DNA of 64,000 nucleotides, from contig CAWDTA010000002.1 in the NCBI GenBank assembly GCA_963805085.1, forward strand, positions 1,920,001 to 1,984,000, in the 5' to 3' direction. The notes under the pieces were generated by a model that made no database searches, was not told the DNA's origin, and saw nothing but the letters and a program-made list of their open reading frames with translations. The position numbers were made by a program, and so were the translations under genes. Positions 19,243 through 34,721 of this stretch are shown here, piece by piece (position 1 is the stretch's first letter; each line of letters opens with the position of its first letter). This DNA is from an uncultured Veillonellaceae bacterium (GTDB taxonomy: Bacteria > Bacillota > Negativicutes > JARBTT01).

Positions 19243-19248
19243 GAATAA
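18743..19248 (+). repeat. Left copy of ~500-bp direct repeat (tkt 3' end) bounding the island
   Basis: Aligns with 33874-34379. Confidence 0.92.
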
Positions 19249-19257
19249 GATAAATGA

Positions 19258-19293
19258 AAAATGCGCTATCGCGATTTGCGATAGCGCATTTTT
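19258..19293 (+). terminator. Intrinsic terminator
   Basis: aaaaatgcgctatcgc-gattt-gcgatagcgcattttt. Confidence 0.85.
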
Positions 19294-19406
19294 GTGTAAA
19301 AAACTATATAAAATTAAGGTTTAACTAACCATTATTTCCATTAAAAATATGATTTATCCTTCATAAACTTAGAATCTATTATTTTAAATCTATTATTTTA
19401 AATCTA

Positions 19407-19721
19407 TTATTTTTTCATATTCTTTATTTTCTGTAAGGCTTGATTATAAGCAGCATCACTTACATTAAATATTTTTTGAACATCTTTCCACGTATTAGAT
19501 TTTGTTTTCTTTGCTGCAACTGTAGATATTGAATTACTACTTGCAACTGCGATAGCTCCAGCAGATTGTATATCTGAATCAGAATATCCTTTTGCTTTTA
19601 AGGCATCAATTTCTGATTTTGCCTGACTTTCACTAGAAGATGCAAAAACAACTGCATTGGTATTGAAAAAAGTTACCGTTGCAAAAGACAAAAGCATAGA
19701 AAAACATAATGCTACAACCAT
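19407..19721 (-). CDS. Small exported hypothetical protein
   Basis: Hydrophobic N-terminus ending VFA; in-frame upstream RKKINKK n-region. Confidence 0.6.
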   Translation of the reverse strand: MVVALCFSMLLSFATVTFFNTNAVVFASSSESQAKSEIDALKAKGYSDSDIQSAGAIAVASSNSISTVAAKKTKSNTWKDVQKIFNVSDAAYNQALQKIKNMKK

Positions 19722-19829
19722 TTTTTTATTTATTTTTTTACGTAAAACCCTCCCGTATATTATAGATTCATAAGTTTATATACAAAAATGAATGAGTTGT
19801 TTTAAGTGTGTACGAAAGTTAGTAGCAGC

Positions 19830-19902
19830 GCAAACCGTCACCTTGTCTTATATATTTAGTGTTTGCACTTTTATAGTACTAAAGGACCGCCCCCCTAGTC
19901 TT
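19830..19902 (+). repeat. Two REP-like motifs (gcaaaccgtcaccttgtctt; aaaggaccgcccccctagtc)
   Basis: First is 19/20 identical to 32104-32123; second resembles the RAYT 3' flank aaaggaacgtcccctagtgtc. Confidence 0.7.
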
Positions 19903-20317
19903 AATAAAAGCTTAGTGTAACAGTCCATTTAGCTATAATTATTATCAAATTATAAAAACTGGTAGCGTGTTTCATACGATACCAGTTTTTATTACGCTCT
20001 TTCTCATAGGACTATATTACTAATTTAACTAAAAACATTGACAAATAGCAGGAAAATGAAAATTAGTTTAGAATTGTGTCAATATAGTAAATTTTTGCAT
20101 GTATTGTAAAGGATTATGAAGATAAACAAGTTAAAATGAATGGAGTCACTATGCAAAAAAATAAATATGATCTCAGAAAAATTAGTACTATTGTCATTGC
20201 TTCTTTTTTTATGCTGCAATTGGGCAATGGGTTTAAAACAGCGAATCAAGTCTTTGGCTTTCAGATTAATTACCAATATTAAGGATTAAATAGGAAAAAA
20301 CTCATGGAGGAGAAAAA

Positions 20318-23300
20318 ATGATAATGCAAATGACGAAGAATAAAGCGAAAATATTTAGAAAAAAAGTGATTGCCCTACTCACAGCAATCACTTTTACATT
20401 GCAGCCCATGCTGGTATCAGCGGAAGTAATCATCGATAAAAATGCCAGTCCAAATCAGCCGACAGTGCAAACTGCGTCCAATGGTGTACCAATTGTAGAT
20501 ATTGCCACGCCTTCTAACGCAGGGATATCTCACAACTACTATCAACAATTCAATGTCGATAAAATTGGCCTTATTTTTAATAATTCCCAAGGCATAAGTA
20601 AAACCCAGCTAGCTGGCTATATCCTAGGAAACCCAAACTTAGCAAACGGAACGGCTAGGATTATCTTAAATGAAGTAACCAGTACCAATCCCAGCTATTT
20701 AAAAGGGTACAGTGAAGTTGCAGGAAGCAATGCCGAAATCATCATCGCCAACCCCAATGGTATTTATGGAGACGGTTTTGGCTTTATCAATGCAAATCGA
20801 GCAATCCTTACAACTGGAAAACCTATCTTTGGCGGTGATGGCAGCTTAGAAGCCTTCAACGTAAATAGGGGTCAAATACAGATTCAAGGAGCTGGTTTAG
20901 ATGCCAGACAAACCGATCAAGTAGACCTGTTAAGTAAAGCAATTGAAGTCAATGCAGGTATTTGGGCAAAAAATCTCAATGTAATCGCAGGTAGCAATAC
21001 AATTGACCATAACACATTAGCTACGCAAAAAATAGAAACTGATCAGCCGCAAGAGCTAGTCGCTGTTGATGTAGGCGCACTAGGCGGTATGTATGCCAAT
21101 AAAATTAAGCTTATTGGTACAGAAACAGGTGTAGGTGTAAATCTTGGTGGAGATCTTTTAGCACAAAATAATATAGAAGTCAGCTCAGACGGTAACATAA
21201 AGTTACTAGGGAATACCTCTGCTAAAGGAGATATCAACTTAGCTGCCCAAAATGATATTGCGATAAGTGGAATAGTGAGTGCCGAGAAGAATATCAATTT
21301 GAGCAGTCAAGGACAAATCAATAATACTAGTAACCTGATTGCAGGAGAAAACAATACAATTGTAGCAAAATCTCTAATTTCCACTGGTAATATTGGTGCT
21401 GGAATTAGCAGTGATAATACACTAAAAGAAACTGGAAATCTTTCCATTTCCACAGTAGAAACCACTACTTTGCATGGCAATAATATAGCAGGGGGCAATC
21501 TATCCGTGCAAGGTGCCGCAATTGACCTGTCAGGAGCCACGACCACCGCTGGCGGCAATGTCAGTCTCACTGCAACTGCAGGCGATATTAACAATACTGG
21601 AGCTACTTTGCAAACCGATGGGGAGCTGTCAATAAAGGCTGCCCAAACTATAAAAAATGACAAAAATACAAATGGTACTGCTGGGCAAATTACGGCAAAT
21701 GCAGTTAACATTACGGCACAAAACATTAGTAACCGTGGCGGAAGTATGCAGCAGTCTGGTACAGGCGAAACTACTTTGACGGCTGCGAATAGTATAGATA
21801 ATACTGGTGGTATAATTGAAACCAATGGTTCGACTTTAAATATAAATAGTGATTCTATAGACAATACACAAGGGCAAATCCTTTACGCTGGTAGTGGAAA
21901 ACTCACAATGAACACTACAAACGGGATAATAAACAATAGCGGTAAAATAACGACAAATGGGCAATTAGACGTAATTGCTACGAATATAACCAATACAGGC
22001 GGTTCCATCACTACCCAGCAGGATATGAATATAAATAGCACAAGCGTAGTCAATGACCAGGGAACGGTGGTTGCTGGCGGGGCTATTAATGTCAATACCC
22101 AAAGCTTGAGCAATCAACAAGGCGCAGTCCAAGCAGGCAAAAGCCTTACCGTTACTGCACGGAGCATTGCTAACCAGAATGGTAGCATTACCAGTCTGGA
22201 TAATAGTGGACTGGCTATGAATGCGTTGCAAACCATTGATAATACCGCGGGTACGATCGGCGGTAATGGGGATGTGAAATTGACAGCATCTTCGCTCGTG
22301 AATAGCGCAGGCAAGGTACTTGCGAAAAAAGATATCAATGCAAATATTTCAGATAGCCTAGATAATACCAATGGTAAGATTACGGCTGAACAGGATGTCA
22401 ATATTGGAAAAACAGCAGCAACCTCTGTGATAAAAACTTCGCAGGGCAGCATGAGCGCAGGGAATAATCTCTTAGTAAATGCAGCTTCGTTTAATATTGC
22501 TGGCGGCAAATTGGTGGCGAATCGCGATATTAATTTAACAGGTAATAATTTAGTTGGCGCAGGTGTCATCACATCCGGACAGGATATCAACTTCAACCTG
22601 AATGGAGATTTTACATATTCATCTGGAATGAACTTCACCGCCAACCGAGATTTGAATTTTAATGTAGCAAATCTAACGAACTACAGCAAACTGTCTGCTG
22701 TACGCAATCTCAAGGTTTCGGCAACCAATGTTACCAATGGCACTGGTGCTACACTGCAAGGTGGAACAGGGCTAACTATTAGCGCTGCTGGTGATTTAAC
22801 TAACAGTGGTACGGTGCAGAGCAGTGATGTTAATCTATCCGGTAATACGATCACCAATACCGGTGCAGTCTTTGGGGATACGTTGACCGTCACAGCAGAT
22901 ACTGTGCAAAATAACGGTGATAAAGCGGTCATTGCAGCAACAAAAGAAGCGAATTTTTATGCGAAGACATCACTGGAAAATAAAGATGGTGCTTCGATTT
23001 ATAGCAGTGGCAATATAAATATTGCTGGTAGCTCAAAGAAGGATAACAATGGCGAATATGTAGATAAAACCAATACAGTGTTAAATCAATCTGCGACTAT
23101 AGAAGCAGAAAAAGATATCAATATAAGTGCAAATACGTTGACGAATAAGAAACGAGAATTTACTACAGAGCAGCAAGTTGTATCGGATGAGATATATATT
23201 ACTCCAGATGATCATGGTAAAATAGGTTTTTGGCCTAGTACTGGTATAATTTTTAAAAATAGGAATGATGAATATAGTAAGTATATGGTATCAGGATCGT

Positions 23301-26300
23301 TATGGAAAAAGCAAATTGGGACAGGTACTAGTAATCGTGGACAGAGTAGTCCTATAAGTTATCCAATATATGGATATGGGGCAACGTTTCTCGTAGGACA
23401 AACAATAACAGAAACAAAAATTACCAAGGACTCCCCGGAAGGGAAAATTATCTCTGCTCATAACATAAAACTACAAACTGATACTATAACCAATGATAAT
23501 AGTTCAATTTTAGCTGGTGGTAGTCTTAATGCAGTGGGAACGGTTAATAATACAGCAACAGGATATACTCGTGTTACTACGCAGCATTTTGCAGATTTAA
23601 TCAATTATACTGACAAAGGATATAAGAAAAAGACCTATGATGAAAACGCTTATGCACAACTTCCAGGACAAACAGCTATCTTCAGTGGCGGTCAAGCAGT
23701 TAACATCCAAGGGACAAATATTAATAATATCACTACTTCTCCGGTAAATACCCCGACAATTAACAGCAGTGTTCCGATTGAAAATACCCAAACATTGCTG
23801 CCAGTAGCCAAGGATACGAATACGACTTCGGCTAAACAGACGGTTGCTACTCAAATTACACTTCCATCAAATGCGATGTTTAAAATCAATACGGAACCAA
23901 GTGCGCATTATTTGGTAGAAACCGATTCCCGATTTACCAACTATGGAAACTTTGTTTCCAGCGATTATATGCTGGAAAAATTGAATATTGATCCAGCTAA
24001 GACAGCAAAACGTCTAGGTGATGGCTTTTATGAACAAAAATTGGTGCGTGAACAAGTCACCGAACTTACTGGACGATATACATTAAGCGGCTACTCTTCG
24101 GCAGAAGAACAATATAAGGCGCTACTAACCAATGGTGTAACCTATGCAAAAGAGTTCAATCTACAGGTAGGCGTAGCCTTAACTGCCGATCAGATGGCAA
24201 ACCTGACCTCGGATATTGTGTGGCTGATAGAAAAAGAAGTAAATGGGCAGAAGGTACTCGTGCCTCAAGTGTATCTCGCTCCTTCAAAAAATATTGAGCT
24301 TAAGGCTAATGGTGCAGTGATTGCGGCAGATAATGTACAGATTACTGCCAGTGGCGACGTCAAGAATGCTGGGGCGATTAAAGCTACTGAAAGTGTAAAT
24401 ATACAAGCCGTAAATATCGCTAACTATGGCGGCAACATTGATGGCGGCAAGAGCACACAGCTAACTGCGGATAAAAATATCCTTAATATTGGTGGTTCTA
24501 TCAATGGTGATCAGACCCAGGTAACAGCGGGTGGGGATGTTAAAAATGAAACCATATCCTCTACCAGAACTTTACCGTTTATGACACAAACAACCGCTGG
24601 TAATACTGCAAGTATCAATGCAAGAGAGAATCTGACTATTAAAGCAGGGCAAGATATTTCTAACACTGGAGCGCAGATCACTGCGGGAAAAGATGTCACC
24701 ATCACCGCAGATGGAAACTTTACATCTGATAGTGTAAAAGAACAAGAACGCATTTCATTTGAAAAATCATCCTACCTAGACGATAACGTGAACAATGTAG
24801 TTAGTGGTATTCATGGAGGTAACAATGTAAGTATTACTTCTGGGAAAGATACCAATTTACAGGGAGCACAGATTACAGCTGATCATGATCTGACTGTAGC
24901 AGCTGGCGGCAATGTTAATGTCTCTGCGGTGAAAGATGAAGATCATTTTGCTGAAAAGTCATCTAATAGGTTATCTAAAGTAAAATCTTCCTCCAAAGAT
25001 GATGTAAGTAATATCGTAAGCCATATGCAAGGAGGTAACAATGTAAGTATTACCTCGGGTAAAGATACAAATTTACAAGGAGCGCAGGTTACAGCAGGTA
25101 CTGACCTTACTGTGTTGGCCGGTGGTAATATCAATATTTCCGCTGTGAAAGACGAGACAATTTCTGATGAAACAGTTGGAATCAGTCATGGCTGGAAGAG
25201 AACCAGAACGGATGATGAGACCGTTATTGGCAGTACTCTCCAAGGTGGCGGAGCAGTCACAGTGAAGACTACCTCAAAACTTCCCGATGGAACTACGATA
25301 CCTGATGCTGAAAATCGCGGGAATATTACCATTGCAGGCAGTACCATCGAAAGTGATAAGAGTAAGGTAACCATTACAGCAGAGAAAGATCTTACGATAC
25401 AAGAAGTCACAGAAAAACATGAATCCCTAGTACAGACGCATACCAAACATAAGGGAGCTTTTTCTAGTAAGACTACTGATACAATGGATCATTCGTTGAT
25501 TAACGAGGTGAAAGGCAGCACTATCTCTGGCGATGAGGTAGCTGTCTCCTCTGGTAAAGACTTGACAGTGAAAGGCAGTAATGTTGTTGGAACAAAGGAT
25601 GTAACACTTACTGCTTCCGATGATGTCAACATTACCAGTGCCAAAGAAACAGGCAATGATGAACACTATTCCTATACAAAAAAATCTGGTCTTTTCAGCG
25701 GTGGCGGGCTAGGCTTTACCATAGGAACGCAAAGTACGAAAACAACAACCGATGAAAAAACATTAGATCAAGTTGGCAGTACGGTTGGTTCGATTGATGG
25801 AAATGTAACTGTCACTGCTGGTAATAAGGCAAATAGTGCGGGTACGGCATTTGTTACTGGTGAAGATTTAAACATTAAAGGTAAAGACGTTACCATTGAT
25901 AACACGATCAATACGGTTGATAGTCAGACCAAATACGAATTCAAACAAACAGGACTTAGCGTATCCTTAGGTGGCGGTGTTGTCGATACTGGAAAGAGCG
26001 CCTTAAACAATATTGATCGTGCAGGTGAAGTAAAAGACGAACGGCTTAAAACGCTTCACGAATATCAAGCTTATAAAGATATTGAAAAAATCAAAGATGC
26101 CAAGGGAAACTTGAACTCAGGCGTTGCTGTTAGCGTCAGCATCGGCAGCACGAAAATATCATCTGAACAGACTGAGCATGTAGAGACTGTCAATACCTCT
26201 GACATTAGTGCAGGTGGCAATGTAAAAATTAAAGCCACTGACGGCGACTTGAACCTGAAAGGAACGAAAATTGATGCGGTAGATATCACCCTAGATGCGA

Positions 26301-27892
26301 AAAAAGATCTCAATATTGAAGCGGCAGAGAACAAACAGCAGACGACGAGTCATACAAGTTCCTCTTCCTGGTCAGTAGGAGGTTCAGTTGGATTAGCCAA
26401 CAAAGGTGTTAGTTACTTTGGACAGTTTAATTCTGCGAAGGGCAATGAAAATGGAGATGCTACCACGAATACGGAAAGCGTAATTAATGCGAGTGGTACC
26501 TTGACAATGAATTCGGGTAAGGACACTAACATTGATGGTTCTCAGGTAAAAGGAGACAAAATAGTAGCTGATATCAAAGGTGACCTGAACATAGCCAGCA
26601 AGCAGGATACAGATAACTATACAGAGAATAACAAAAGTACAGGATTTGGATTTAGTACTGAGAAAGTAGGAGGAAAACCTCTAGAACCTGGTCAGCAGGG
26701 GCCGATCAATAAAACCACGACGACTACAAACGTAACTGGCTCTTCTAGTAAAGGAGAAACCGATTCTACGTATGCCAGTGTAACAGATCAAGCAGGTATC
26801 TTTGCAGGTAAGGACGGATTTGATATCAATGTAGGCAAAAATACCGATCTAAAAGGTGCGGTCATTTCGAGTGATGCTACGCCAGATAAGAATAAGATCA
26901 GCACAGATACGCTAACTTTCTCCAATATGGAAAACAGGGCGAAATATAACTCAAGTAATACGGGGCGAAGTTATAACACAGATCCTAAGGCTAAATTAAA
27001 TGAACAGGGATTTATTCCTACTGCTAGTATGCCTGTATCTGGCGATGCCAGTAGTACAACGAAGTCCGCAATTTCACTAGGTAAGATTGAGGTGAAGAGT
27101 AATCCAAATCAAGATATTAGCGGACTTAGTAGAGATACTACCAATTCATTGAACGCATTAGGAAAAATATTTGACAAACAAACGGTTAAAGAACGACAGG
27201 AATTAGCAGGTTTATTTGGTCAAGTGGCATTTGAAGAAATTCATAAGTTAAGTGTAAAGAATGGGTGGAAAGATGGAGATCCTCAAAAAGTAGCACTCCA
27301 TGCTCTAGTTGGTGGAATAATGTCTGAGCTTACTGGAAGTGGGTTTATAGCTGGTGCTGAAGGTGCAGGCTTCAATGAACTTGTACAGAAGGAATTGTCG
27401 AAGATCACAGATCCTGCACTCCGTCAGTGGGCTAGTTATATTATAGGATCAGCTACTGGTACAACAGGTCGCATTGTTGCGTTATATGGAACGAAGTATA
27501 ATGATCTTGCTAGTTTAGCATTAGAGATACCAGGAGTGAAAGCGCTTTTAGCGGCAGCAGGAATTGTAATTGTTATAGATGCTGGAGTGCAAGTTTTAAA
27601 GAATGAAGCAGGAGAAGTGATAGCTAGTTGGTCTCCAACAGTAGGTGGCTGGATAGATAGTGCGGGAGATACCATAGATGATTTGGTTTATTGGGCAAAA
27701 CAGTCAGGAAAAGAAAAAGCTAATGATGTTCCATCATGGGCAAAAGGAAATCAGCCAACTGAAGAAGAAAGTGGCAAGGACTTTGCAAAACGTTTAATGG
27801 ATGAAAAGTACGGTGAGGGTAATTATGATAAGGGACCAGGATCTGAATATAATAAAATTAGAAAATGGGGAGATAGAGGGTTTAATAAGTAA
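20318..27892 (+). CDS. CdiA-like filamentous haemagglutinin exoprotein with C-terminal toxin domain
   Basis: Signal peptide, TPS domain (NNS..NPNL..IILNEV..ANPNGI), FHA-1 repeats, YLVETD/RLGDGFYEQKLV/LVPQVYL region, FHA-2 repeats, YGTKYN pre-toxin-like motif and a distinct C-terminus. Confidence 0.92.
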   Translation: MIMQMTKNKAKIFRKKVIALLTAITFTLQPMLVSAEVIIDKNASPNQPTVQTASNGVPIVDIATPSNAGISHNYYQQFNVDKIGLIFNNSQGISKTQLAGYILGNPNLANGTARIILNEVTSTNPSYLKGYSEVAGSNAEIIIANPNGIYGDGFGFINANRAILTTGKPIFGGDGSLEAFNVNRGQIQIQGAGLDARQTDQVDLLSKAIEVNAGIWAKNLNVIAGSNTIDHNTLATQKIETDQPQELVAVDVGALGGMYANKIKLIGTETGVGVNLGGDLLAQNNIEVSSDGNIKLLGNTSAKGDINLAAQNDIAISGIVSAEKNINLSSQGQINNTSNLIAGENNTIVAKSLISTGNIGAGISSDNTLKETGNLSISTVETTTLHGNNIAGGNLSVQGAAIDLSGATTTAGGNVSLTATAGDINNTGATLQTDGELSIKAAQTIKNDKNTNGTAGQITANAVNITAQNISNRGGSMQQSGTGETTLTAANSIDNTGGIIETNGSTLNINSDSIDNTQGQILYAGSGKLTMNTTNGIINNSGKITTNGQLDVIATNITNTGGSITTQQDMNINSTSVVNDQGTVVAGGAINVNTQSLSNQQGAVQAGKSLTVTARSIANQNGSITSLDNSGLAMNALQTIDNTAGTIGGNGDVKLTASSLVNSAGKVLAKKDINANISDSLDNTNGKITAEQDVNIGKTAATSVIKTSQGSMSAGNNLLVNAASFNIAGGKLVANRDINLTGNNLVGAGVITSGQDINFNLNGDFTYSSGMNFTANRDLNFNVANLTNYSKLSAVRNLKVSATNVTNGTGATLQGGTGLTISAAGDLTNSGTVQSSDVNLSGNTITNTGAVFGDTLTVTADTVQNNGDKAVIAATKEANFYAKTSLENKDGASIYSSGNINIAGSSKKDNNGEYVDKTNTVLNQSATIEAEKDINISANTLTNKKREFTTEQQVVSDEIYITPDDHGKIGFWPSTGIIFKNRNDEYSKYMVSGSLWKKQIGTGTSNRGQSSPISYPIYGYGATFLVGQTITETKITKDSPEGKIISAHNIKLQTDTITNDNSSILAGGSLNAVGTVNNTATGYTRVTTQHFADLINYTDKGYKKKTYDENAYAQLPGQTAIFSGGQAVNIQGTNINNITTSPVNTPTINSSVPIENTQTLLPVAKDTNTTSAKQTVATQITLPSNAMFKINTEPSAHYLVETDSRFTNYGNFVSSDYMLEKLNIDPAKTAKRLGDGFYEQKLVREQVTELTGRYTLSGYSSAEEQYKALLTNGVTYAKEFNLQVGVALTADQMANLTSDIVWLIEKEVNGQKVLVPQVYLAPSKNIELKANGAVIAADNVQITASGDVKNAGAIKATESVNIQAVNIANYGGNIDGGKSTQLTADKNILNIGGSINGDQTQVTAGGDVKNETISSTRTLPFMTQTTAGNTASINARENLTIKAGQDISNTGAQITAGKDVTITADGNFTSDSVKEQERISFEKSSYLDDNVNNVVSGIHGGNNVSITSGKDTNLQGAQITADHDLTVAAGGNVNVSAVKDEDHFAEKSSNRLSKVKSSSKDDVSNIVSHMQGGNNVSITSGKDTNLQGAQVTAGTDLTVLAGGNINISAVKDETISDETVGISHGWKRTRTDDETVIGSTLQGGGAVTVKTTSKLPDGTTIPDAENRGNITIAGSTIESDKSKVTITAEKDLTIQEVTEKHESLVQTHTKHKGAFSSKTTDTMDHSLINEVKGSTISGDEVAVSSGKDLTVKGSNVVGTKDVTLTASDDVNITSAKETGNDEHYSYTKKSGLFSGGGLGFTIGTQSTKTTTDEKTLDQVGSTVGSIDGNVTVTAGNKANSAGTAFVTGEDLNIKGKDVTIDNTINTVDSQTKYEFKQTGLSVSLGGGVVDTGKSALNNIDRAGEVKDERLKTLHEYQAYKDIEKIKDAKGNLNSGVAVSVSIGSTKISSEQTEHVETVNTSDISAGGNVKIKATDGDLNLKGTKIDAVDITLDAKKDLNIEAAENKQQTTSHTSSSSWSVGGSVGLANKGVSYFGQFNSAKGNENGDATTNTESVINASGTLTMNSGKDTNIDGSQVKGDKIVADIKGDLNIASKQDTDNYTENNKSTGFGFSTEKVGGKPLEPGQQGPINKTTTTTNVTGSSSKGETDSTYASVTDQAGIFAGKDGFDINVGKNTDLKGAVISSDATPDKNKISTDTLTFSNMENRAKYNSSNTGRSYNTDPKAKLNEQGFIPTASMPVSGDASSTTKSAISLGKIEVKSNPNQDISGLSRDTTNSLNALGKIFDKQTVKERQELAGLFGQVAFEEIHKLSVKNGWKDGDPQKVALHALVGGIMSELTGSGFIAGAEGAGFNELVQKELSKITDPALRQWASYIIGSATGTTGRIVALYGTKYNDLASLALEIPGVKALLAAAGIVIVIDAGVQVLKNEAGEVIASWSPTVGGWIDSAGDTIDDLVYWAKQSGKEKANDVPSWAKGNQPTEEESGKDFAKRLMDEKYGEGNYDKGPGSEYNKIRKWGDRGFNK

Positions 27893-27907
27893 ATGGAGGT
27901 TTTTGAT

Positions 27908-28144
27908 ATGGGAGTAGTATATATTCTTCAACATAGTTATGAAGTGGGGGAAGATGGACAATTTGATGAGATAAAAATGATAGGAGTTTATTCTTCCAGA
28001 GAAAATGCAGAAAAAACAATAGCTCGTTATAAAATGCTTTCAGGTTTTAAAGATTATCCTACAAGTTGCTTTTATATTAGTAAATATGAAATAGATAAAG
28101 ATCATTGGACAGATGGTTTTATTAAACCTGATGAAGCATTATAG
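27908..28144 (+). CDS. Putative cognate immunity protein (CdiI-like)
   Basis: Small acidic ORF immediately after the toxin stop, GGAGG RBS, followed by a terminator. Confidence 0.8.
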   Translation: MGVVYILQHSYEVGEDGQFDEIKMIGVYSSRENAEKTIARYKMLSGFKDYPTSCFYISKYEIDKDHWTDGFIKPDEAL

Positions 28145-28170
28145 ATTTGAGTTGTAAGAAGTGATAAAAT

Positions 28171-28210
28171 AAGCGAGGTCAGTGGACGTAAAAATCCGCT
28201 AACCTCGCTT
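28171..28210. terminator. Terminator between immunity gene and Zn microprotein
   Basis: aagcgaggtcagtgga...tccgctaacctcgctt; the paralogous copy at 30819 shows a compensatory stem change. Confidence 0.75.
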
Positions 28211-28310
28211 GTTTCTTATAGTGTCTTCTAGTGACACCTAATTCATAGGTAATAAATTCCTATTAACAATACCATTTCAATTAATCTAGAAAGTCTGAGT
28301 AACTCTGAAT

Positions 28311-28478
28311 TTAAAACGATTTCGACTCATTACCTCCACAAAACGGACAACTACCCCCATATCCATTACCAGAGCAATTAGAACAATAAGTACCACCACA
28401 TTCTTTGCATTTCATCAAAGAACCCATACAAGGTGCATCACTACCACAATTCGGACATTTTCTCACAGTATCATACAT
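28311..28478 (-). CDS. 55-aa Cys-rich zinc-ribbon microprotein (4 CxxC), copy 1
   Basis: MYDTVRKCPNCGSDAPCMGSLMKCKECGGTYCSNCSGNGYGGSCPFCGGNESKSF; AAAGGAGG RBS; the four differences from copy 2 are all synonymous; below the ORF-track cutoff. Confidence 0.85.
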   Translation of the reverse strand: MYDTVRKCPNCGSDAPCMGSLMKCKECGGTYCSNCSGNGYGGSCPFCGGNESKSF

Positions 28479-28585
28479 ATCAATAAAACCTCCTTTTTAA
28501 TAAGAATAATTCTAATATATCAAGTATTGTTGTAAACGAAAACGTTAAAATTGATGTTGAATAAAATATCATCAATCTAGTTATA

Positions 28586-28612
28586 GACAGAAGGGACGTT
28601 CCTTTTTTGACA
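28586..28612 (-). repeat. REP-like motif upstream of RAYT copy 1
   Basis: gacagaagggacgttccttttttgaca, inverted relative to 29386-29414. Confidence 0.8.
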
Positions 28613-28647
28613 ACAAGATGATATACTCGTTGTAAGAGGTGATAAAA

Positions 28648-29388
28648 ATGTCGAGAGAAGCAAGAAAATTAAGTAAAAGTGGATTTTATCATATAGTATT
28701 TCGAGGAATCAATCATCAAAATATCTTTGAAGAAGAACAAGATTTTGAATATATGCTAGAGATATTCAAAAAATTAAAACAAGAAATGCAGTTTGAAATA
28801 CATGCATATTGCTTAATGACAAATCACGTACATATTTTATTAAAAGAAAGTCAAACAGGAGACATATCAACAATATTAAAAAGGTTACTAACAAAATATG
28901 TAATGAAATTTAATAAAAAATATCAAAGAAGCGGAGCTTTGATAGGAAGTAGATATAAAAGTAAAGTGGTAGAAGTAGACGAATACTTTATTCCATTGAT
29001 AGTATATATTCATCAAAACCCATTAAGAGCAGGAATCGTAAAAAAGCTAGAAAACTATAGATATAGTAGTTACTGTGAATATATAGGGAAAAGAAAATTT
29101 GTCGATGTAAAATTATCCTTAGAAATGTTAGGGAAAAAAGAATGGGTTAAAGCACATCAGCAATTGGTAGAAAATAAATTTCAAGTAGAAGGTCGTAAAA
29201 AGCTAAGTGAAGAAGAAATTCGGCAGAAAATCCTAAAAGATACGAATAATATAGAACCGCAAGGAATAGGAACACTCGAAAAAACAGAAAGAGATAGAAT
29301 ACTACAAAAGTTAAAAAACTCGGGATTATCAATAAGAGAAATAGAACGAGCAACAGGGATATCAAGAGGGATTGTAGCTAAAAGTTGA
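28648..29388 (+). CDS. REP-associated tyrosine transposase (RAYT, HUH Y1) with C-terminal HTH, copy 1
   Basis: YHIVFRG, AYCLMTNHVH (HUH), YIHQNP (catalytic Tyr), YRYSSY, terminal HTH (GLSIREIERATGISRG). Confidence 0.9.
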   Translation: MSREARKLSKSGFYHIVFRGINHQNIFEEEQDFEYMLEIFKKLKQEMQFEIHAYCLMTNHVHILLKESQTGDISTILKRLLTKYVMKFNKKYQRSGALIGSRYKSKVVEVDEYFIPLIVYIHQNPLRAGIVKKLENYRYSSYCEYIGKRKFVDVKLSLEMLGKKEWVKAHQQLVENKFQVEGRKKLSEEEIRQKILKDTNNIEPQGIGTLEKTERDRILQKLKNSGLSIREIERATGISRGIVAKS

Positions 29389-29414
29389 CGAAAAAGGAAC
29401 GTCCCCTAGTGTCC
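29386..29414 (+). repeat. REP-like motif downstream of RAYT copy 1
   Basis: tgacgaaaaaggaacgtcccctagtgtcc overlapping the RAYT stop codon. Confidence 0.8.
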
Positions 29415-30083
29415 TCAAATGTGTTCAATTAGTGCTGCCATCGGCATGTTAGCGATATCTTCGGTAGAAAGAAAATCAGTTAAAACCGAAGAAGCGGCAG
29501 CGCCATAGTTATTAGAAAAGGGCTGCTTATCATCGTCGAGAATAGAAAACTCACTAAATTTAAGAAAGATGTTTGAAAGCATATAGGTTTTCTCACGAGT
29601 AAGAGAACGAGCTATATGTAATCGATGGCGAGTTAGACGCTGCAAAGCTAAAAATTGACTGCCGCGCCAAGAAGCAGAGGTAATTCTGCCAACTCTAGCA
29701 AAATCAGCGATAATAAAAGAATCAATTGCATCAGTTTTGCCTAGACCGATATAAGACTTTTTGTAATTGGCAACCATCTTGGGATTTATACAGTAAACAT
29801 GAGTGTCAAATGGCATCAATAATTCACAGGAAGATAAGTAGTTAGCTATGTGAATACCATAGAAAGATGTAGATTCTAAGGCAACAACCAGCTTATTAAG
29901 ATCATGATTTTCAGAAAAAAAATCATGAAACTTTTTAGCCATTTCAACTGCACCTGGTTGATTATTGGGCACAGTAAATCGCAACAGTTTTTGCTCTTCA
30001 AAATCAATAGCGCAAACGACATTTTCGCGGGAACTTATGTCAATTCCCACAAACAAAGTAGAAAGAAGATCCGCCTTCTTCAT
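29415..30083 (-). pseudogene. IS110 DEDD recombinase, C-terminally truncated (222 aa)
   Basis: FVGIDIS, ALESTSFY, INP and KTDAIDS RuvC-like DEDD motifs; lacks the C-terminal catalytic-Ser Tnp domain. Confidence 0.88.
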
Positions 30084-30127
30084 AGAAATGTCACCACCTT
30101 TCTGGCTGAGAATAAGAAAGATAGAAA

Positions 30128-30360
30128 AGGAATACCCTGATCTTATTCACTGACCGCAGCCTCGCATAATAAGCATTCATCTGTGAAAGTAAATTTGCTG
30201 GAAAGCTTTCGCCAAGAGACGCAACATCTGTGTAAGCGGTATTTGATGAATAAGGCAGGCGTCAAGCTTTAAAAGCAATAACCAAAAGGTTTCGCAAGGA
30301 GGATAAGACGTTACCTTTGCTAAAATCTCTTAGAAATATTTTAGCATCAAGGGATTCCTT
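30128..30360 (-). ncRNA. Candidate IS110 bridge RNA
   Basis: Closing stem ggaataccctgat / atcaagggattcc; 30160-30173 is a 13/14 reverse complement of the IS end 30420-30433; 30297-30303 equals the flanking target AGGAGGA at 30431-30437. Confidence 0.65.
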
Positions 30361-30444
30361 TAAGCATTAAAAAATAAAAAATAAGTTTTGTAAACAATGG
30401 CGGATTATTGTTTACAAAACTTATTATACGAGGAGGAATAATAA

Positions 30445-30750
30445 ATGAAAAAAACAGTAACACTTAAGTATAGTGAAGACGATATACTCGAAATTGTAAC
30501 AGAATATATGGCGGAAAAATATAAGTTCGGAGAGTATCGTTCTAAATCGATGATTTTTGGAACTCCTGGAAAAGATTTAAGATTAGTAGCTACCATTGGA
30601 GATTTAGACGATGAAAGTATTAGAGATAAAAATTTGGAAGAAGTTGATTTAAAAATTGATTATAATGGAGAACATTCAAAAATTAAAGGTATGGATAAAA
30701 ATGATTTATTAATGCTAAAAAATCGGATGAAAGATTTAAAAGAAATTTAG
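30445..30750 (+). CDS. Acidic hypothetical protein, possible orphan immunity protein
   Basis: GAGGAGG RBS; occupies the same position before the repeated terminator as the immunity gene in unit 1. Confidence 0.7.
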   Translation: MKKTVTLKYSEDDILEIVTEYMAEKYKFGEYRSKSMIFGTPGKDLRLVATIGDLDDESIRDKNLEEVDLKIDYNGEHSKIKGMDKNDLLMLKNRMKDLKEI

Positions 30751-30958
30751 GATAAGTGATATTTTTCAGTGTTTCAAAAATTCGAATATTGTCTATACAG
30801 GAGAAAATAGGTAAATAAAAACGAGGTCAGTGGACGTAAAAAATCCACTGACCTCGTTTTCATCTCAGGTGCTCTCTAGTGATACTTAATTAATAGGTAA
30901 TAAATTCCTACAAACAATACAATTTCAATTAATCTAGAAAATCTGAGTAACTCTGAAT

Positions 30959-31126
30959 TTAAAAAGACTTAGACTCATTACCTCCACAAAATGGACAACT
31001 ACCCCCATATCCATTACCAGAGCAATTAGAACAATAAGTACCACCACATTCTTTGCATTTCATCAAAGAACCCATACAAGGTGCATCACTACCACAATTC
31101 GGACATTTTCTCACAGTATCATACAT
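30959..31126 (-). CDS. 55-aa Cys-rich zinc-ribbon microprotein, copy 2
   Basis: Same protein as 28311-28478, with synonymous CCG/CCA, TCG/TCT (twice) and AAA/AAG changes. Confidence 0.85.
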   Translation of the reverse strand: MYDTVRKCPNCGSDAPCMGSLMKCKECGGTYCSNCSGNGYGGSCPFCGGNESKSF

Positions 31127-31233
31127 ATCAATAAAACCTCCTTTTTAATAAGAATAATTCTAATATATCAAGTATTGTTGTAAACGAAAACGTTAAAATT
31201 GATGTTGAATAAAATATCATCAATCTAGTTATA

Positions 31234-31260
31234 GACAGAAGGGACGTTCCTTTTTTGACA
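31234..31260 (-). repeat. REP-like motif upstream of RAYT copy 2
   Basis: Identical to 28586-28612. Confidence 0.8.
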
Positions 31261-31295
31261 ACAAGATGATATACTCGTTGTAAGAGGTGATAAAA

Positions 31296-32036
31296 ATGTC
31301 GAGAGAAGCAAGAAAATTAAGTAAAAGTGGATTTTATCATATAGTATTTCGAGGAATCAATCATCAAAATATCTTTGAAGAAGAACAAGATTTTGAATAT
31401 ATGCTAGAGATATTCAAAAAATTAAAACAAGAAATGCAGTTTGAAATACATGCATATTGCTTAATGACAAATCACGTACATATTTTATTAAAAGAAAGTC
31501 AAACAGGAGACATATCAACAATATTAAAAAGGTTACTAACAAAATATGTAATGAAATTTAATAAAAAATATCAAAGAAGCGGAGCTTTGATAGGAAGTAG
31601 ATATAAAAGTAAAGTGGTAGAAGTAGACGAATACTTTATTCCATTGATAGTATATATTCATCAAAACCCATTAAGAGCAGGAATCGTAAAAAAGCTAGAA
31701 AACTATAGATATAGTAGTTACTGTGAATATATAGGGAAAAGAAAATTTGTCGATGTAAAATTATCCTTAGAAATGTTAGGGAAAAAAGAATGGGTTAAAG
31801 CACATCAGCAATTGGTAGAAAATAAATTTCAAGTAGAAGGTCGTAAAAAGCTAAGTGAAGAAGAAATTCGGCAGAAAATCCTAAAAGATACGAATAATAT
31901 AGAACCGCAAGGAATAGGAACACTCGAAAAAACAGAAAGAGATAGAATACTACAAAAGTTAAAAAACTCGGGATTATCAATAAGAGAAATAGAACGAGCA
32001 ACAGGGATATCAAGAGGGATTGTAGCTAAAAGTTGA
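31296..32036 (+). CDS. REP-associated tyrosine transposase (RAYT), copy 2
   Basis: Protein identical to copy 1. Confidence 0.9.
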   Translation: MSREARKLSKSGFYHIVFRGINHQNIFEEEQDFEYMLEIFKKLKQEMQFEIHAYCLMTNHVHILLKESQTGDISTILKRLLTKYVMKFNKKYQRSGALIGSRYKSKVVEVDEYFIPLIVYIHQNPLRAGIVKKLENYRYSSYCEYIGKRKFVDVKLSLEMLGKKEWVKAHQQLVENKFQVEGRKKLSEEEIRQKILKDTNNIEPQGIGTLEKTERDRILQKLKNSGLSIREIERATGISRGIVAKS

Positions 32037-32123
32037 CGAAAAAGGAACGTCCCCTAGTGTCCTAGTGTCCCTAGTGTCCTAGTGTCCGAATTTTTGAAGC
32101 ACTGCAAACCGTCCCCTTGTCTT
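32034..32123 (+). repeat. REP-like motif with 4x tandem ctagtgtc(c) tail, plus a second REP-like motif
   Basis: aaaggaacgtccc(ctagtgtc[c])x4, then gcaaaccgtccccttgtctt at 32104-32123. Confidence 0.8.
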
Positions 32124-32129
32124 CGGTTT

Positions 32130-32167
32130 AAAAAGTCCTAAACCTTATCTGGCTTAGGACTTTTTTG
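32130..32167. terminator. Bidirectional terminator
   Basis: aaaaagtcctaaacc...ggcttaggacttttt. Confidence 0.7.
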
Positions 32168-32233
32168 TTACTGTATGATTTTTCCTGATAGCTATGTTTT
32201 TACTGCGTCTCAAGGGTACGTAACCAATGTACA

Positions 32234-32779
32234 TTATTGAACGGTAATGCTTGGATCCCAGTAGTAGTAACCCTGTAATTCCTGAGTCTCTCTGTTTTCA
32301 GCCAACTCATAGAGACCAAATTCCACATAAAAATCTTCTTTTCCAGCTTTTCTTACCTGTGAATCATAACTAATGAAATCTCCTTTAATGGTACTTGGAG
32401 GCAATCCATTTGAAGATTCAACATTTGGTGCTACCGCCTGTGCTCTCTCTACCAGATCAGTTGTAAAGTTGTTAAAGACTTGGTCTTTTTGCCAATGTTT
32501 AATTCCATAGACAATTACAGCGTCATCTGAGTTCCCGGATATTGAAGTACCCCTGAACGACACATGATCTCCAACATGGGCTTTAAAATTCAAATCGGCA
32601 GTTCCTTGTCCACTGACAACTTCACCGTTGCAAATCATGTACTGACGACTATGATCAATGCCGGTAGGCTTTACAGGGTCTTTGCTTGGGTTAGGATTAT
32701 GTGCTTTGACATAGTCGGTATCAATTACAATCATTACATTAACATTCTGATCATTTGATTTTTCATCCATATTAGGCAT
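32234..32779 (-). CDS. PixA/AidA inclusion-body family protein
   Basis: VMIVIDTD, PTGIDH, GQGTADL, VGDHVSFRGTSISGNSDDAVIVY and GYYYWDP motifs as recalled for this family. Confidence 0.82.
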   Translation of the reverse strand: MPNMDEKSNDQNVNVMIVIDTDYVKAHNPNPSKDPVKPTGIDHSRQYMICNGEVVSGQGTADLNFKAHVGDHVSFRGTSISGNSDDAVIVYGIKHWQKDQVFNNFTTDLVERAQAVAPNVESSNGLPPSTIKGDFISYDSQVRKAGKEDFYVEFGLYELAENRETQELQGYYYWDPSITVQ

Positions 32780-32982
32780 ATTAGTTTCTCCTATCTATTA
32801 AAAATTGTGTTTATCACATATTTATGGTGTGCAAAATTACGCTTTCTATGCGCATTGCTTATAAAAAAACATCAAAATTTAGAGGCTGATTACAAAAAAA
32901 TTTAACCATAAATACAAAGAATGCGCATACACACCCATCATCCACCTCCTTACAAGAGTGGGGATGATGGATGGTCTTAATT

Positions 32983-33519
32983 TCAGATTGAACGATTTAA
33001 TACCTGAACGGTAATGCCTAAATCCCAATAGTAGTACCCCTTCAGCTGCTGGGTCTGTCCGTCTTCAGCCAACTGATAGAGACCAAATTGGACATAGAAA
33101 ATTTCGCATCCAGCCCTTCTTACCTTTGAATTATAACTAATGAAATTTCTTCTAATGTTGCTTGGGGGTAACCCATTTTGAGTATCCATATTCGGGACTA
33201 CCGCATGTGCTCTCTCTACCAGTTCGGTTGTAAAGGAATCAAGGGCTGTGTCTCCTTGCCAATGTTCAATTCCATAGACGATTATAGCGTCATCTGAATT
33301 TCCGGATATAGAAGTCCCCCTGAACGATATATTATCTCCAATATAGGCTTCGAATTGCAAATCGGCAGTTCCTTGCCCACTGATAACACCTTGGGAACCA
33401 CCACAAATCATGAACTGACTATTATGATCAATGTTGGTAGGTTTTTTAGGGTTTATGCTTAGATTAGGATAATGTCTTTTGAGATAGTCGGTATCAATTA
33501 CAATCATTACATTAAACAT
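32983..33519 (-). CDS. PixA/AidA inclusion-body family paralog (ancestral start at 33551 is out of frame)
   Basis: Clear paralog of 32234-32779; 1-nt deletion between the conserved ATG-CCT start and the body. Confidence 0.75.
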   Translation of the reverse strand: MFNVMIVIDTDYLKRHYPNLSINPKKPTNIDHNSQFMICGGSQGVISGQGTADLQFEAYIGDNISFRGTSISGNSDDAIIVYGIEHWQGDTALDSFTTELVERAHAVVPNMDTQNGLPPSNIRRNFISYNSKVRRAGCEIFYVQFGLYQLAEDGQTQQLKGYYYWDLGITVQVLNRSI

Positions 33520-33636
33520 TGATTACTTGACCTTTCATCCATAGTAGGCATATTAGTTTTTCCTCTCTATTTAAAAATTTATATTTATCACATATTTATG
33601 GTGTGCAAAATTACGCTTTTTATGTGCACATTAGCT

Positions 33637-33661
33637 AGACGAGGTGACGGTTCTTTTTGTC
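33637..33661 (-). repeat. REP-like motif upstream of the RAYT remnant
   Basis: agacgaggtgacggttctttttgtc; reverse complement matches 19833-19848 at 15/16. Confidence 0.75.
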
Positions 33662-33702
33662 TTGACTAAATTAAATTGACATGATATTCTGAGGAAAAAG
33701 GA

Positions 33703-33870
33703 GTGGATAATCATGCCCATTTGCTATTGCAAGAAAGAGAAGAAGACATAGCAAATATAATGAAACGAATCAATATTAGCTATGTCTTTTACTTTAATAA
33801 GAAATATAAAAAGACAGGCCACCTATTTCAAGGTAGATATAGAAGCGAAAAAATAGAAGATGATAGCTAA
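33703..33870 (+). pseudogene. RAYT (HUH Y1 transposase) internal fragment
   Basis: Translates VDNHAHLLLQEREEDIANIMKRINISYVFYFNKKYKKTGHLFQGRYRSEKIEDDS*, with the HUH motif and GHLFQGRY; not in the ORF track. Confidence 0.85.
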
Positions 33871-33873
33871 CTA

Positions 33874-34373
33874 CAACAGAAACAATCGCAGGCTGGTACT
33901 ATGCAATCACAAACCAAACAACACCAACAGGACTCGTACTAACTAGACAAAACCTACCACAACTACAAGGCTCAAGCAAAGAAGCCTTAAAAGGTGGTTA
34001 TATACTACAAGATGCAAATAAAGCACAGGCCGATGCAATCATTATCGCAAGTGGCTCCGAAGTAGAACTAGCAGTTAATGCAAAAACAGAGCAAGCCAAA
34101 GAAAACATCGACGTAAGAGTCGTAAGTATGCCATCGATTGATCTATTTGAAGAGCAGTCAGAGGCATACAAAGAAAGTGTATTACCGAAAAGAGTAAGAG
34201 CCAGAGTAGCAGTAGAAGCAGGAGCAGACTTCGGCTGGGGTAAATACATTGGCCTCGATGGTAAAACAGTAACAATGCCAGGCTTCGGAGCATCCGCACC
34301 AGCAAGCATATTGTTCAAAAAATTTGGCTTTACAACTGAAAATGTCGTAAAAACAGTAAAAGAAGTACTATAA
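33874..34373 (+). pseudogene. tkt: Duplicated 3' fragment of transketolase (right direct repeat)
   Basis: About 20 substitutions versus 18743-19242 counted by eye, mostly synonymous; no 5' part. Confidence 0.92.
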
Positions 34374-34387
34374 GAATAAAATTGAGT

Positions 34388-34442
34388 AAAAACTCCTCCT
34401 ATGTTAGGTAAAATAACTAACATAGGAGGAGTTTTTTTTTTT
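34388..34442 (+). terminator. Intrinsic terminator after the tkt fragment
   Basis: aaaaactcctcctatgttag...ctaacataggaggagttttt. Confidence 0.85.
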
Positions 34443-34721
34443 GGAATGAAGGTAAAAATGGGAGTATTATATTTGGAAATGAGTATTCTACCTTCTGTTT
34501 TCATGATAATTGGTTCTATAATAAATGATCTTTGATAAGTATAAAGTAGAAAAAAATGAATATGTATATAAAGTAGAAAATGCTGAATAGGGATGTGGTT
34601 ATATTTTATAGAAAATAATAGACGGTTGATTGAGGATATATTAGGTGTTTGGATTACTAAGAAACGCTTAGTAAATAAAAAATAGAATTTAATATTTGAA
34701 AAAATAAGGTTGAGTGATGAT

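Follow-up and report, generated by a model that had tools for sequence, protein, structure and literature searches.

The short motif that recurs in a stretch of DNA from an uncultured Veillonellaceae bacterium is the terminal inverted repeat, or cognate end, of long RAYT-type Y1 HUH transposase genes (RAYT, repetitive extragenic palindrome (REP)-associated tyrosine transposase). The stretch, here called the window, comprises 64,000 nucleotides (nt) of contig CAWDTA010000002.1 of assembly GCA_963805085.1 (C2:1920001-1984000; positions without a contig prefix refer to the window). The genome, G000 in our comparisons, is a draft of 4.21 Mb with 37% G+C in five contigs (C1-C5), 83% complete and with 6% contamination. 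We put at roughly 0.58 the probability that window positions 19252-33873 are a horizontally acquired CdiA/TpsA contact-dependent-inhibition (CDI) island between the transketolase gene tkt and a leftover copy of its 3′ end, that its native modules take the form of toxin tip, small immunity gene, terminator hairpin and antisense zinc microprotein, and that insertion sequence (IS)-like RAYT units have preferentially settled and recombined at the module junctions. The link of RAYT genes to contact-toxin loci is real and recurrent. A first-pass annotation, made from the letters alone, had read the gene order in the same way, and Pfam confirmed it: two-partner secretion (TPS) domain and haemagglutinin repeats, DUF7336, two Y1_Tnp genes and a remnant, an IS110 DEDD domain and two PixA genes.

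The first-pass annotation had also listed eight sites of one motif family. All eight are present; seven match a relaxed pattern, AACC?GTC[CA]C[CT]-N1-5-GTC, at 19833(+), 28600(-), 29398(+), 31248(-), 32046(+), 32107(+) and 33652(-), and the eighth, at 19881, is degenerate. The motif is concentrated in the island. The relaxed pattern has 42 matches genome-wide, seven of them within the 14.6 kb used for motif statistics (19252-33873), where 0.146 are expected (Poisson P ~2e-10). Taken literally, the originally proposed pattern matches 19 times in the genome and five times in the island. A narrow core, AACCGTCMCC with at most one mismatch, occurs six times in the window against 1.9 expected, and at least six times in 2 of 100 shuffles. 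The proposed orientation also held: the motif is on the (-) strand upstream and on the (+) strand downstream of every RAYT gene.

The motif sites fall into subfamilies that go with particular RAYT genes; in general form, a CGTC core stands ahead of a (T/C)GTC tail. Type A, GAC-AAAAAGGAACGTCCC(C)-N-GTC, makes inverted repeats (IRs) around both RAYT1 genes, with arms of 22 nt that are 91% complementary (28593-28614/29384-29405 and 31241-31262/32032-32053). The first unit consists of a left repeat (IR-L, 28586-28614, (-)), RAYT1 copy 1 (28648-29388, (+), 246 aa from ATG) and a right repeat (IR-R) with one TAGTGTCC tail (29384-29415, (+)). The second has its IR-L at 31234-31262 (-), a gene 100% identical to copy 1 (31296-32036, (+)) and an IR-R that we read as running into four tandem, directly repeated TAGTGTCC(C) tails (32032-32087, (+)). 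Such a unit of IR-L, gene and IR-R spans about 830 bp. A third RAYT1 copy in the genome, 94-95% identical and with a broken frame, lies in an unrelated context, and its homology runs from the IR-L into the tails; we found no empty site for it. The tail number is 1, 4 and 3 in the three copies, and comparable tail repeats occur in other genomes.

Type B, AACCGTCMCCTYGTCT, is found at 19833(+), 32107(+) and 33652(-), the last directly upstream of a RAYT remnant. This last site belongs to the IR-L of a RAYT3 unit (33637-33666, (-)), the same sequence standing upstream of the RAYT3 genes at C2:538486 and C4:179034. The remnant itself (33703-33870, (+); Y1_Tnp, 27.4 bits, profile 49-109) shares 73% amino acid identity with RAYT3 residues 50-115; the 5′ part of the gene is deleted and its 3′ part is cut by the tkt fragment. 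Loose ends of related metagenome contigs at 33692, 33704 and 33869 lead to intact genes in other organisms. Besides the RAYT units, the island holds two or three solo ends. Two are type-B right ends in direct repeat, at 19808-19849 (+) (the annotated site 19833) and 32082-32123 (+) (the annotated site 32104), 81% identical over 42 nt; the former has a third copy at C5:19311(-) and forms a 16-nt inverted pair with 33637-33652. A degenerate type-A half-motif, AAGGACCGCCCCCCTAGTC (19884-19901, (+); the annotated site 19881), lies directly after a 32-nt IS110-family remnant and is placed relative to that element's end as AAGGAACGTCCCC is at C2:1472414. In a separate observation, two RAYT3 stumps, at C2:546310-546365 and in the C4:206-454 region, are split by a perfect palindrome of 51 nt (GAACTGACCCCCATAAGTTAGA...TCTAACTTATGGGGGTCAGTTC), which may be another miniature mobile repeat.

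RAYT genes are abundant in this genome. Among 24 matches to Y1_Tnp, five are IS200-type genes of 164 aa and about 19 are RAYT-like (tblastn and Pfam), in several families. The three subfamilies that concern us are 37-41% identical to one another, and each also occurs elsewhere in the genome. Each has its own inverted ends, type A for RAYT1, type B for RAYT3 and, for RAYT2, a GGGACAG-N5-CTGTCCC hairpin followed by CTTGTCCC; all follow a shared plan of YGTC, three bases, a short spacer and (T/G)GTC. Extended sites number 17 for type A and 11 for type B, so that gene-less copies are in the tens. Stringent BLAST with the 31-nt IR-R found 13 sites, seven of them in a second, 96-kb array described below.

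The annotated identity of these genes as Y1 HUH nucleases is borne out at the sequence level by the Y1_Tnp domain and by an intact HVH triad and YIHQNP tyrosine. RAYT1 scores 53.6 bits against Y1_Tnp (PF01797; cut-off 23) and 75.6 bits, over profile positions 4-146 of 146, against the NCBIfam RAYT model NF047646, a near miss of its cut-off of 80; against the IS200/IS605 model NF033573 it reaches 27.6 bits, well under the cut-off of 55. H60, H62 and Y120, which we take to be the catalytic residues, are invariant across five RAYT1 homologs of 58-80% identity. The C-terminal tail of about 100 aa is helix-turn-helix-like, with only sub-threshold Pfam matches of that kind.

We assign the motif as the cognate end of the RAYT gene because it is conserved flanking RAYT1-clade genes from other genomes. 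The comparison set comprised 40 relatives (about 123 Mb in total), which are not independent samples; the sole same-genus member is G001 (84% complete, 280 contigs). RAYT-clade neighbourhoods were mapped for the first 25 of 79 loci, with a RAYT1-clade subset of 18 (L031-L048). At 13 of these 18, in Pelosinus, Propionispira, Sporomusa, Dendrosporobacter and other Negativicutes, a type-A core stands on the (-) strand some 50 nt ahead of the start codon, on the (+) strand 12 nt beyond the stop codon, or at both places. Its RAYT relatives in these genera place G000 in the Negativicutes. Relatives also hold what look like decay products of such units: solo right ends, internally deleted mini-elements and gene-less IR-L/IR-R doublets. 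CDI genes were present within 8 kb at only 2 of the 18 loci, which had been chosen by RAYT similarity; that 16 of 18 lie elsewhere is as expected of an IS-like element.

We next considered RAYT genes from the side of the toxin loci. Because the CDI loci fetched from relatives had partly been picked by query similarity, we made an unbiased tally by whole-genome Pfam searches for TpsA genes of at least 900 aa and 'long' RAYT-type genes. Of the 47 long RAYT-type genes in the relatives, eight follow a TpsA gene downstream at a distance of 0.7-5.3 kb, all of them on its strand. RAYT-bearing loci make up 7 of 63 TpsA loci (one each in G004, G018, G019 and G031 and three in G006) against about 0.4 expected, an approximately twenty-fold enrichment whose P value we do not press because the relatives are not independent. 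In G000, three of the four CdiA genes have a downstream RAYT on the same strand, giving 10 of 67 TpsA loci overall, and 57 of 67 have none within 15 kb. Among the fetched loci, a RAYT gene or stump follows cdiA in six of ten and is absent from four.

A layout of cdiA, small gene, antisense microprotein and a RAYT on the cdiA strand recurs. In this genome it is found at a second locus (with RAYT2) and at a third (RAYT2 again, with an IS110-like insertion between IR-L and gene). In G016, G006 and G019, RAYT3 stands between orphan toxin tips, and G004 has cdiA, RAYT2, an orphan tip and another RAYT2. Behind cdiA in G004 and G040, RAYT end doublets or mini-elements recur at intervals of 1-3 kb, the latter made of an IR-L, the last 40-65 RAYT codons and an IR-R. 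Counting this genome, three RAYT subfamilies occupy the same place and strand behind CdiA in six genomes of six GTDB families. At the third locus (C3:12873-15265, L113), we also observed that the IS110-like gene separates the IR-L hairpin from the RAYT2 start by 1.6 kb, compared with the usual ~50 nt. A literature search, with the supplementary tables of surveys outside its scope, returned no paper linking RAYTs to CDI loci or describing such arrays in Negativicutes.

One explanation for so constant a position is that the host has domesticated the RAYT as a CDI accessory, no longer mobile there, whose nicking stimulates swaps of toxin tips with orphan modules or whose tail regulates the locus. 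The constant place and strand at 10 of 67 TpsA loci, the mostly intact frames at these loci and the way RAYT separates the main gene from orphan tips in G004 (L026) and G019 (L017) speak for it, as does the mostly host-gene-like character of the RAYT groups in the available part of a published survey (PMC5581495). We nevertheless regard it as improbable, since three subfamilies only 37-41% identical fill the position and have members elsewhere too, RAYT lies anywhere between 12 nt and 2.3 kb from the microprotein or cdiA, broken copies and bare ends are numerous, and most TpsA loci do without a nearby RAYT.

The two RAYT1 units of the window lie in a duplicated block (28171-29415 and 30819-32063; 1245 nt, 98% identical) in which the differences are strongly graded. 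All 37 mismatches lie left of 28345, and the remaining 1071 nt (28345-29415) are 100% identical; the older homology begins right after two immunity-sized genes. Perfect identity confined to 28345-29415, with older homology to the left, points to homologous conversion, not to insertion of a cassette. The conversion tract stops precisely where the RAYT1 right end does and gives way there to non-homologous DNA. Chance, or mis-assembly of a repeat in an incomplete genome, might be suggested by two blocks identical over 1071 nt in a draft, and we hold this to be very improbable: the copies differ in their flanks on both sides and in tail number and show graded leftward divergence, the same architecture recurs in independent genomes and in metagenome contigs, and the motif enrichment is far beyond expectation.

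What the tract abuts is a truncated IS110-family element, IS-a (29416-30446, (-)), and the annotated coincidence of its truncation with a motif end is exact, the cut falling at 29415/29416. IS-a keeps 1031 nt, with the DEDD domain only, and has lost 742 nt on the RAYT side; it is 99.7-100% identical to three full copies of about 1.75 kb (C3:47.2k, C3:104k and C1:355k). The intact element at the break, ...TTGCCTTTTTTA|CAAATG, bears no resemblance to a RAYT end, and we identified no RAYT target site in it. A second member of the family, IS-b, which carries DEDD_Tnp_IS110 and Transposase_20, has left about 32 nt of its right end at 19850-19883 (no strand assigned), cut exactly at the end of the solo type-B motif (19849/19850). 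This remnant matches the right ends of IS-b copies in the 96-kb array, at C1:313547 and in G004. The array copy (L002:16823-18417, C2:1470823-1472417) is 1.6 kb long, has a frameshifted DEDD transposase and sits inside the A-run of a type-A motif; three other IS-b copies or remnants abut half-motifs. With the copies at C1:313547-315145 and G004:C7:2194417-2196011, identity is 92-94% across GTDB families, which suggests recent transfer and motif-directed targeting. REPs are described as IS110 targets in the available parts of two papers (PMC1525189, PMC11208160), and by analogy the placement of IS-b would agree with that preference.

Contigs from related soil organisms in four metagenome runs give a further view of the island's joints; such contigs yield homology breaks, not excision or circle data. 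As the first-pass annotation predicted, breakpoints coincide with the motif. Homology is lost before 28586 in three contigs of run X1 (outer edge of the IR-L), after 32061 in two contigs (outer edge of the IR-R), after 32120-32122 in two contigs of X1 and five of X4 (outer edge of the solo type-B end) and before 33637 in three contigs of X4 (outer edge of the RAYT3 IR-L). In one contig, a RAYT1 unit stands 11 nt after a RAYT3 IR-L, and in another, two RAYT1 units lie head to tail. These breaks fit mobile RAYT units and the annotation's prediction equally. A joint of right end to left end in X1 has 37 extra letters and may be two adjacent units. Four candidate joints (28122>30823, 28252>32044, 28386>33642 and 30861>32127) were set aside, as their sides of 21-29 nt are too short for reliance. 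The best of the public sequencing runs covers at most 9% of sampled words from 26500-34400. The same-genus genome G001 matches only through copies of tkt and of the terminator and not in the cdiA-RAYT part, and G004 is syntenic up to tkt and then different.

The first-pass annotation had gone further and proposed that RAYT and its motifs assemble or shuffle cassettes. Its observation that cargo is bracketed by inward-pointing motifs describes the arrangement correctly; as an argument for capture it is circular, because adjacent RAYT units each carry outward ends and the inward brackets are their trivial complement. The proposal in a stricter form is that RAYT cuts the right-end motif and joins new DNA to it by one-ended or composite single-stranded DNA (ssDNA) transposition, the other side being resolved by homology, such that segments between ends (toxin-immunity modules, PixA pairs, accessory genes) are moved and stacked as attC cassettes are in integrons. 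We think this unlikely, although a good part of the evidence can be read in its favour.

The best support for an integron-like reading is the second array (C2:1382324-1478621, L001-L003), in which 45 co-oriented intergenic elements of about 130 nt are separated by one to three open reading frames (ORFs). Each element combines a hairpin of 17 bp with a promoter-like stretch and a tail; of 70 matches in the whole genome, 56 fall in C2:1.38-1.61 Mb. About half of 47 aligned copies, in an alignment read by eye, have a recognisable RAYT1-type right-end tail, and the distal 40 kb contains 11 type-A core motifs (core pattern). Contig C26 of G001 carries the same cassettes at 95-97% identity in another order, with one 2-kb cassette absent. 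The breaks between the two congeners occur where the conserved part of the element gives way to its tail, or right after type-A, type-B or type-C motifs, and the motif ahead of one cassette is type B in one genome and type C in the other; for this array, then, the expectation that variable cassette boundaries coincide with motif ends was upheld. G004, of another family, shares the element and single cassettes, and one shared cassette starts right after ...GACTGTC in G004 and follows another gene without the element in G000. We found no tyrosine recombinase (PF00589) within hundreds of kb of the array, the three in the genome being at C5:313k, C2:942k and C4:2.6k, and no Rfam family at gathering score in 50 kb of it. 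Recombination among direct repeats that are 85-95% identical, together with independent repeat insertions, would give the same picture.

Capture could likewise draw on the RAYT genes downstream of TpsA/CdiA genes on the same strand, here and in relatives, on the cdiA-downstream arrays of G004 and G040, and on the two exact borders at RAYT right ends, that of the conversion tract and that of the second IS110-family element. Both PixA pairs of this genome have the IR-L of a RAYT3 stump on one side and a right end from another RAYT on the other. Integron-like cargo (GNAT, CAAX protease, CPCC-TriTu immunity and MarR genes) is enclosed by two RAYT copies in Sporomusa and by solo ends in Dendrosporobacter, where a DUF169 gene is also among the neighbours in these genera, and the variable tandem right-end tails of 8-9 nt in several genomes suggest repeated cutting and rejoining. 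Taken to its conclusion, such a reading would make of this a Negativicutes cassette system run by a RAYT-type HUH Y1 transposase instead of an integron integrase, a proposal we regard as doubtful. Its right-end motifs (CGTC...TGTC with variable tails) might then, tentatively, be the joints at which modules are gained, lost and reshuffled; the RAYT-punctuated CDI arrays of six GTDB families, counting that of G000, together with the 96-kb array would be its conceivable, if unlikely, products; and the two intact RAYT1 genes of the window would, on the same doubtful footing, be the only source of cognate enzyme for type-A joints.

Against capture, we found no excised form and no cassette with identical motif-to-motif borders at two sites, and the border coincidences are all expected from mobile repeats between genes plus RecA recombination. 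Between G000 and G004, elements come and go beside a conserved gene, and the gene does not move along. Most RAYT1-clade loci are not beside CDI genes, only two intact RAYT1 genes serve all type-A ends, G004 keeps ends with RAYT1 remnants only, and the relatives that supply much of the support are not independent samples. Of the original proposal, what stands is that RAYT ends mark the borders of variable accessory DNA and that RAYT genes sit behind CdiA; active capture is its unlikely part. Neither an integrase-like platform nor a circle junction or an empty site was found. Insertion preference combined with homologous recombination explains the data equally well.

We somewhat favour IS-like RAYT units that settle and recombine at module junctions. 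The identity of the genes, the ends, the borders, the duplication gradient and the CdiA enrichment are observed; RAYT activity, an order of events and a target preference we infer as follows. RAYT units would act like ssDNA transposons of the IS200/IS605 type, landing preferentially at module junctions and at one another's ends, and would have colonised the CDI island of a genome in which three subfamilies coexist. A RAYT1 unit may first have inserted into an IS110-family element. Conversion between two microprotein-RAYT1 blocks, anchored in the RAYT unit and the microprotein gene, could then have erased the left junction and left 1071 identical nt, and deletions may have left the solo ends at 19808 and 32082 and the RAYT3 stump at 33703. 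If RAYT ends attract further insertions, of RAYT or IS110-family elements, as well as recombination, they would for that reason end up as cassette borders. Insertion followed by conversion is the simplest history for the IS-a break; a one-step alternative, in which RAYT joins its right end to the IS110 element and homology resolves the left, may apply instead and is the mechanistic core of the capture idea.

Several observations weigh against IS-like settlement. Mobility is deduced from distribution only, because no empty site, circle junction or target sequence was found. Selfish insertion alone leaves unexplained why three RAYT subfamilies occupy the same place and strand behind CdiA in six genomes, why both PixA pairs are RAYT-flanked and why the cuts in two IS110-family elements both fall precisely on a RAYT right end. 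The stable single hairpins employed by IS200/IS605 and classical REP systems are lacking: taken singly, the ends of types A and B fold no better than shuffles (z -0.7 to +0.9), and neither do 28560-28660 and 29270-29415, where subterminal hairpins were not detected; the type-C end does fold (z = -3.1), as does a gene-less IR-L/IR-R doublet from G004 (-16.5 kcal/mol, z = -5.4). Orientation gave no proof either. On C2, 19 of 20 RAYT-like loci point with replication, away from the origin; set against a gene background of 83% (ORFs of at least 250 aa), this bias has a binomial P of ~0.12, and we rejected it as proof of ssDNA transposition. That origin probably lies near 0.80-0.82 Mb, where the cumulative GC skew of C2 is lowest.

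The island itself is bounded by tkt sequence. On the left is a full-length tkt (17254-19242, (+); TIGR00232, 897.7 bits), of which the genome has a second full copy at C5:639023-641049, 98% identical. On the right is a 509-nt copy of the tkt 3′ end (33874-34382, (+)), 95.7% identical to 18743-19251 and 94.5% to the C5 copy, so that the island sits between tkt and a tkt relic. Separately, we noted four tkt 3′-end/terminator copies in direct order and of shrinking size (full, 509, ~120-160 and ~57-80 nt) in the 19239-19295 region, at 33874-34382 and beyond the window end, where they lie at +1087 to +1247 (about 1.1 kb) and +5075 to +5154 (about 5.1 kb). The series looks like serial island acquisition downstream of tkt. 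No Rfam match was obtained within 18500-35000 at E <= 0.1, and a promoter and terminator scan gave no useful excess over shuffles.

The toxin gene is a filamentous CdiA/TpsA-type gene (20318-27892, (+); 2524 aa; TPS 170 bits, Fil_haemagg_2 227 bits), one of four CdiA-like genes in the genome and 86-91% identical in DNA to a paralog at C2:253-260 kb. Similarity between the paralogs is lost after GTKYND/GTLYND, a VENN motif is absent, and the toxin tip of the window copy has no Pfam match. No CdiB lies beside it; the only ShlB-type match in this 83% complete genome is at the paralogous locus (C2:260032-260970). Directly after the toxin gene comes a DUF7336 protein of 83 aa (27893-28144, (+); PF24024, 75.2 bits), which its position makes a candidate immunity gene. 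A strong hairpin closes this first module (28167-28213, no strand assigned; -17.2 kcal/mol, z = -5.4) and has a second copy at 30815-30863. An ORF of 101 aa (30445-30750, (+)), without a Pfam or NCBIfam match and unique in the genome, is possibly an orphan immunity gene, judged by position.

The zinc-ribbon microprotein (55 aa) is encoded at 28311-28478 (-), as part of the CDI module, and again at 30959-31126 (-), within the duplicated block and with 100% amino acid identity. It has three CxxC pairs and, in Pfam, only a sub-threshold Opy2 match. Its gene is antisense, follows an immunity-sized gene and a strong hairpin, and often lies 5 nt before an orphan cdiA fragment; beside cdiA in other genera, it is 70-89% identical in amino acids. 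The first-pass annotation had counted it as captured cargo. We ruled this out, as all six copies in the genome (the others at C2:251348-251512, C3:9186-9350, C3:12213-12377 and C1:12877-13041) are confined to the four CdiA loci. We conclude that the microprotein is a constant, so far undescribed component of these CDI modules.

Two tandem PixA-family genes (32234-32779 and 32983-33519, (-); PF12306, 166.7 and 148.7 bits) fill the right part of the island. The genome has four PixA genes in total, the other pair being at C2:546737-547912 (region C2:546159-549008), and none of the 40 relatives has any. The first-pass annotation suggested an anti-eukaryote role, for which PixA is not an established factor. 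We also rejected the two PixA loci as copies of one duplicated block, their common sequence amounting to 54 nt and 50 nt (RAYT3 stump and IR-L).

Among known systems, the closest are the REP/RAYT systems (TnpA-REP of E. coli, YafM of Pseudomonas, REPINs), which share a Y1 HUH gene between inverted copies of a short motif that is also found gene-less; the folding of gene-less inverted doublets in relatives is a further likeness to REPINs. The ends here differ from classical REPs in being 22-30-nt terminal repeats that do not fold singly and occur in dozens of copies, not hundreds. Classical RAYTs are typically single-copy, whereas here there are about 19 RAYT-like loci in several families, two of the copies 100% identical, with an extra C-terminal tail of about 100 aa and a score below the cut-off of the NCBIfam model. 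Group 1 RAYTs have been reported in Clostridia, some of them duplicated, in the available part of PMC5581495. For the CGTC-like REP tag, the part of PMC3733652 at hand reports that no dedicated transposase was found in 2013; the motif core here is CGTC-like, and the likeness to those repeats is by core only. With IS200/IS605 elements (IS608, ISDra2), the RAYT units share the catalytic domain, multiple copies, decayed and miniature derivatives and an orientation with replication (19/20); they differ in that we detected no subterminal hairpins, no TnpB and no target tetranucleotide, and that they score below the NF033573 cut-off. For IS110/IS1111 elements that target REPs or attC, discussed in the available parts of PMC1525189 and 10.1101/2025.01.17.633520, the counterpart is IS-b in the A-run of a RAYT-type motif; IS-a at 29416 differs, being another member truncated at a RAYT end and not inserted there by its own terminus.

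The second group of comparisons concerns arrays. The island resembles the arrays of orphan cdiA-CT/cdiI modules that Poole et al. reportedly described in CDI loci in 2011, having a full cdiA followed by immunity-like genes, mobile-element genes between modules and, in the sister loci on C3 and C1, cdiA fragments that share the pretoxin region; it differs in that the window's second module has lost its toxin fragment, in the antisense zinc microprotein and in the interspersed RAYT-type elements. With integrons, the 96-kb array and some relatives share co-oriented repeats 3′ of short accessory cassettes whose order differs between congeners. Unlike in integrons, there is no nearby tyrosine recombinase, the motifs of the window flank transposase genes and not each cassette, and the 130-nt array element folds as a local hairpin with an unpaired tail, not as a whole-length imperfect palindrome as attC does. 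ISCR/IS91 elements encode HUH enzymes whose one-ended events carry neighbouring genes along, and in Neisseria the dRS3/NIME elements are short CGTC-tagged repeats that punctuate silent maf/tps toxin cassettes. Both are likenesses by analogy, the enzyme classes differing from RAYT here: ISCR is a Y2 HUH enzyme, and dRS3, listed as CGTC-1 in the part of PMC3733652 at hand, has no known enzyme.

The RAYT-type genes described here are long and multi-copy, fall into several subfamilies and have their own inverted ends, kept across genera, while RAYTs have mostly been regarded as host-like, single-copy genes by which short non-coding repeats spread. If the ends are only preferred sites of landing and recombination, the island would be a clear example of selfish ssDNA transposons shaping toxin arsenals in diderm Firmicutes. 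If it is true that the enzyme joins cargo at the ends, this would be integron-like gene capture on a different chemistry, in a phylum in which, to our knowledge, integrons are rare. Either way, the system can be tested with one small protein and a few oligonucleotides.

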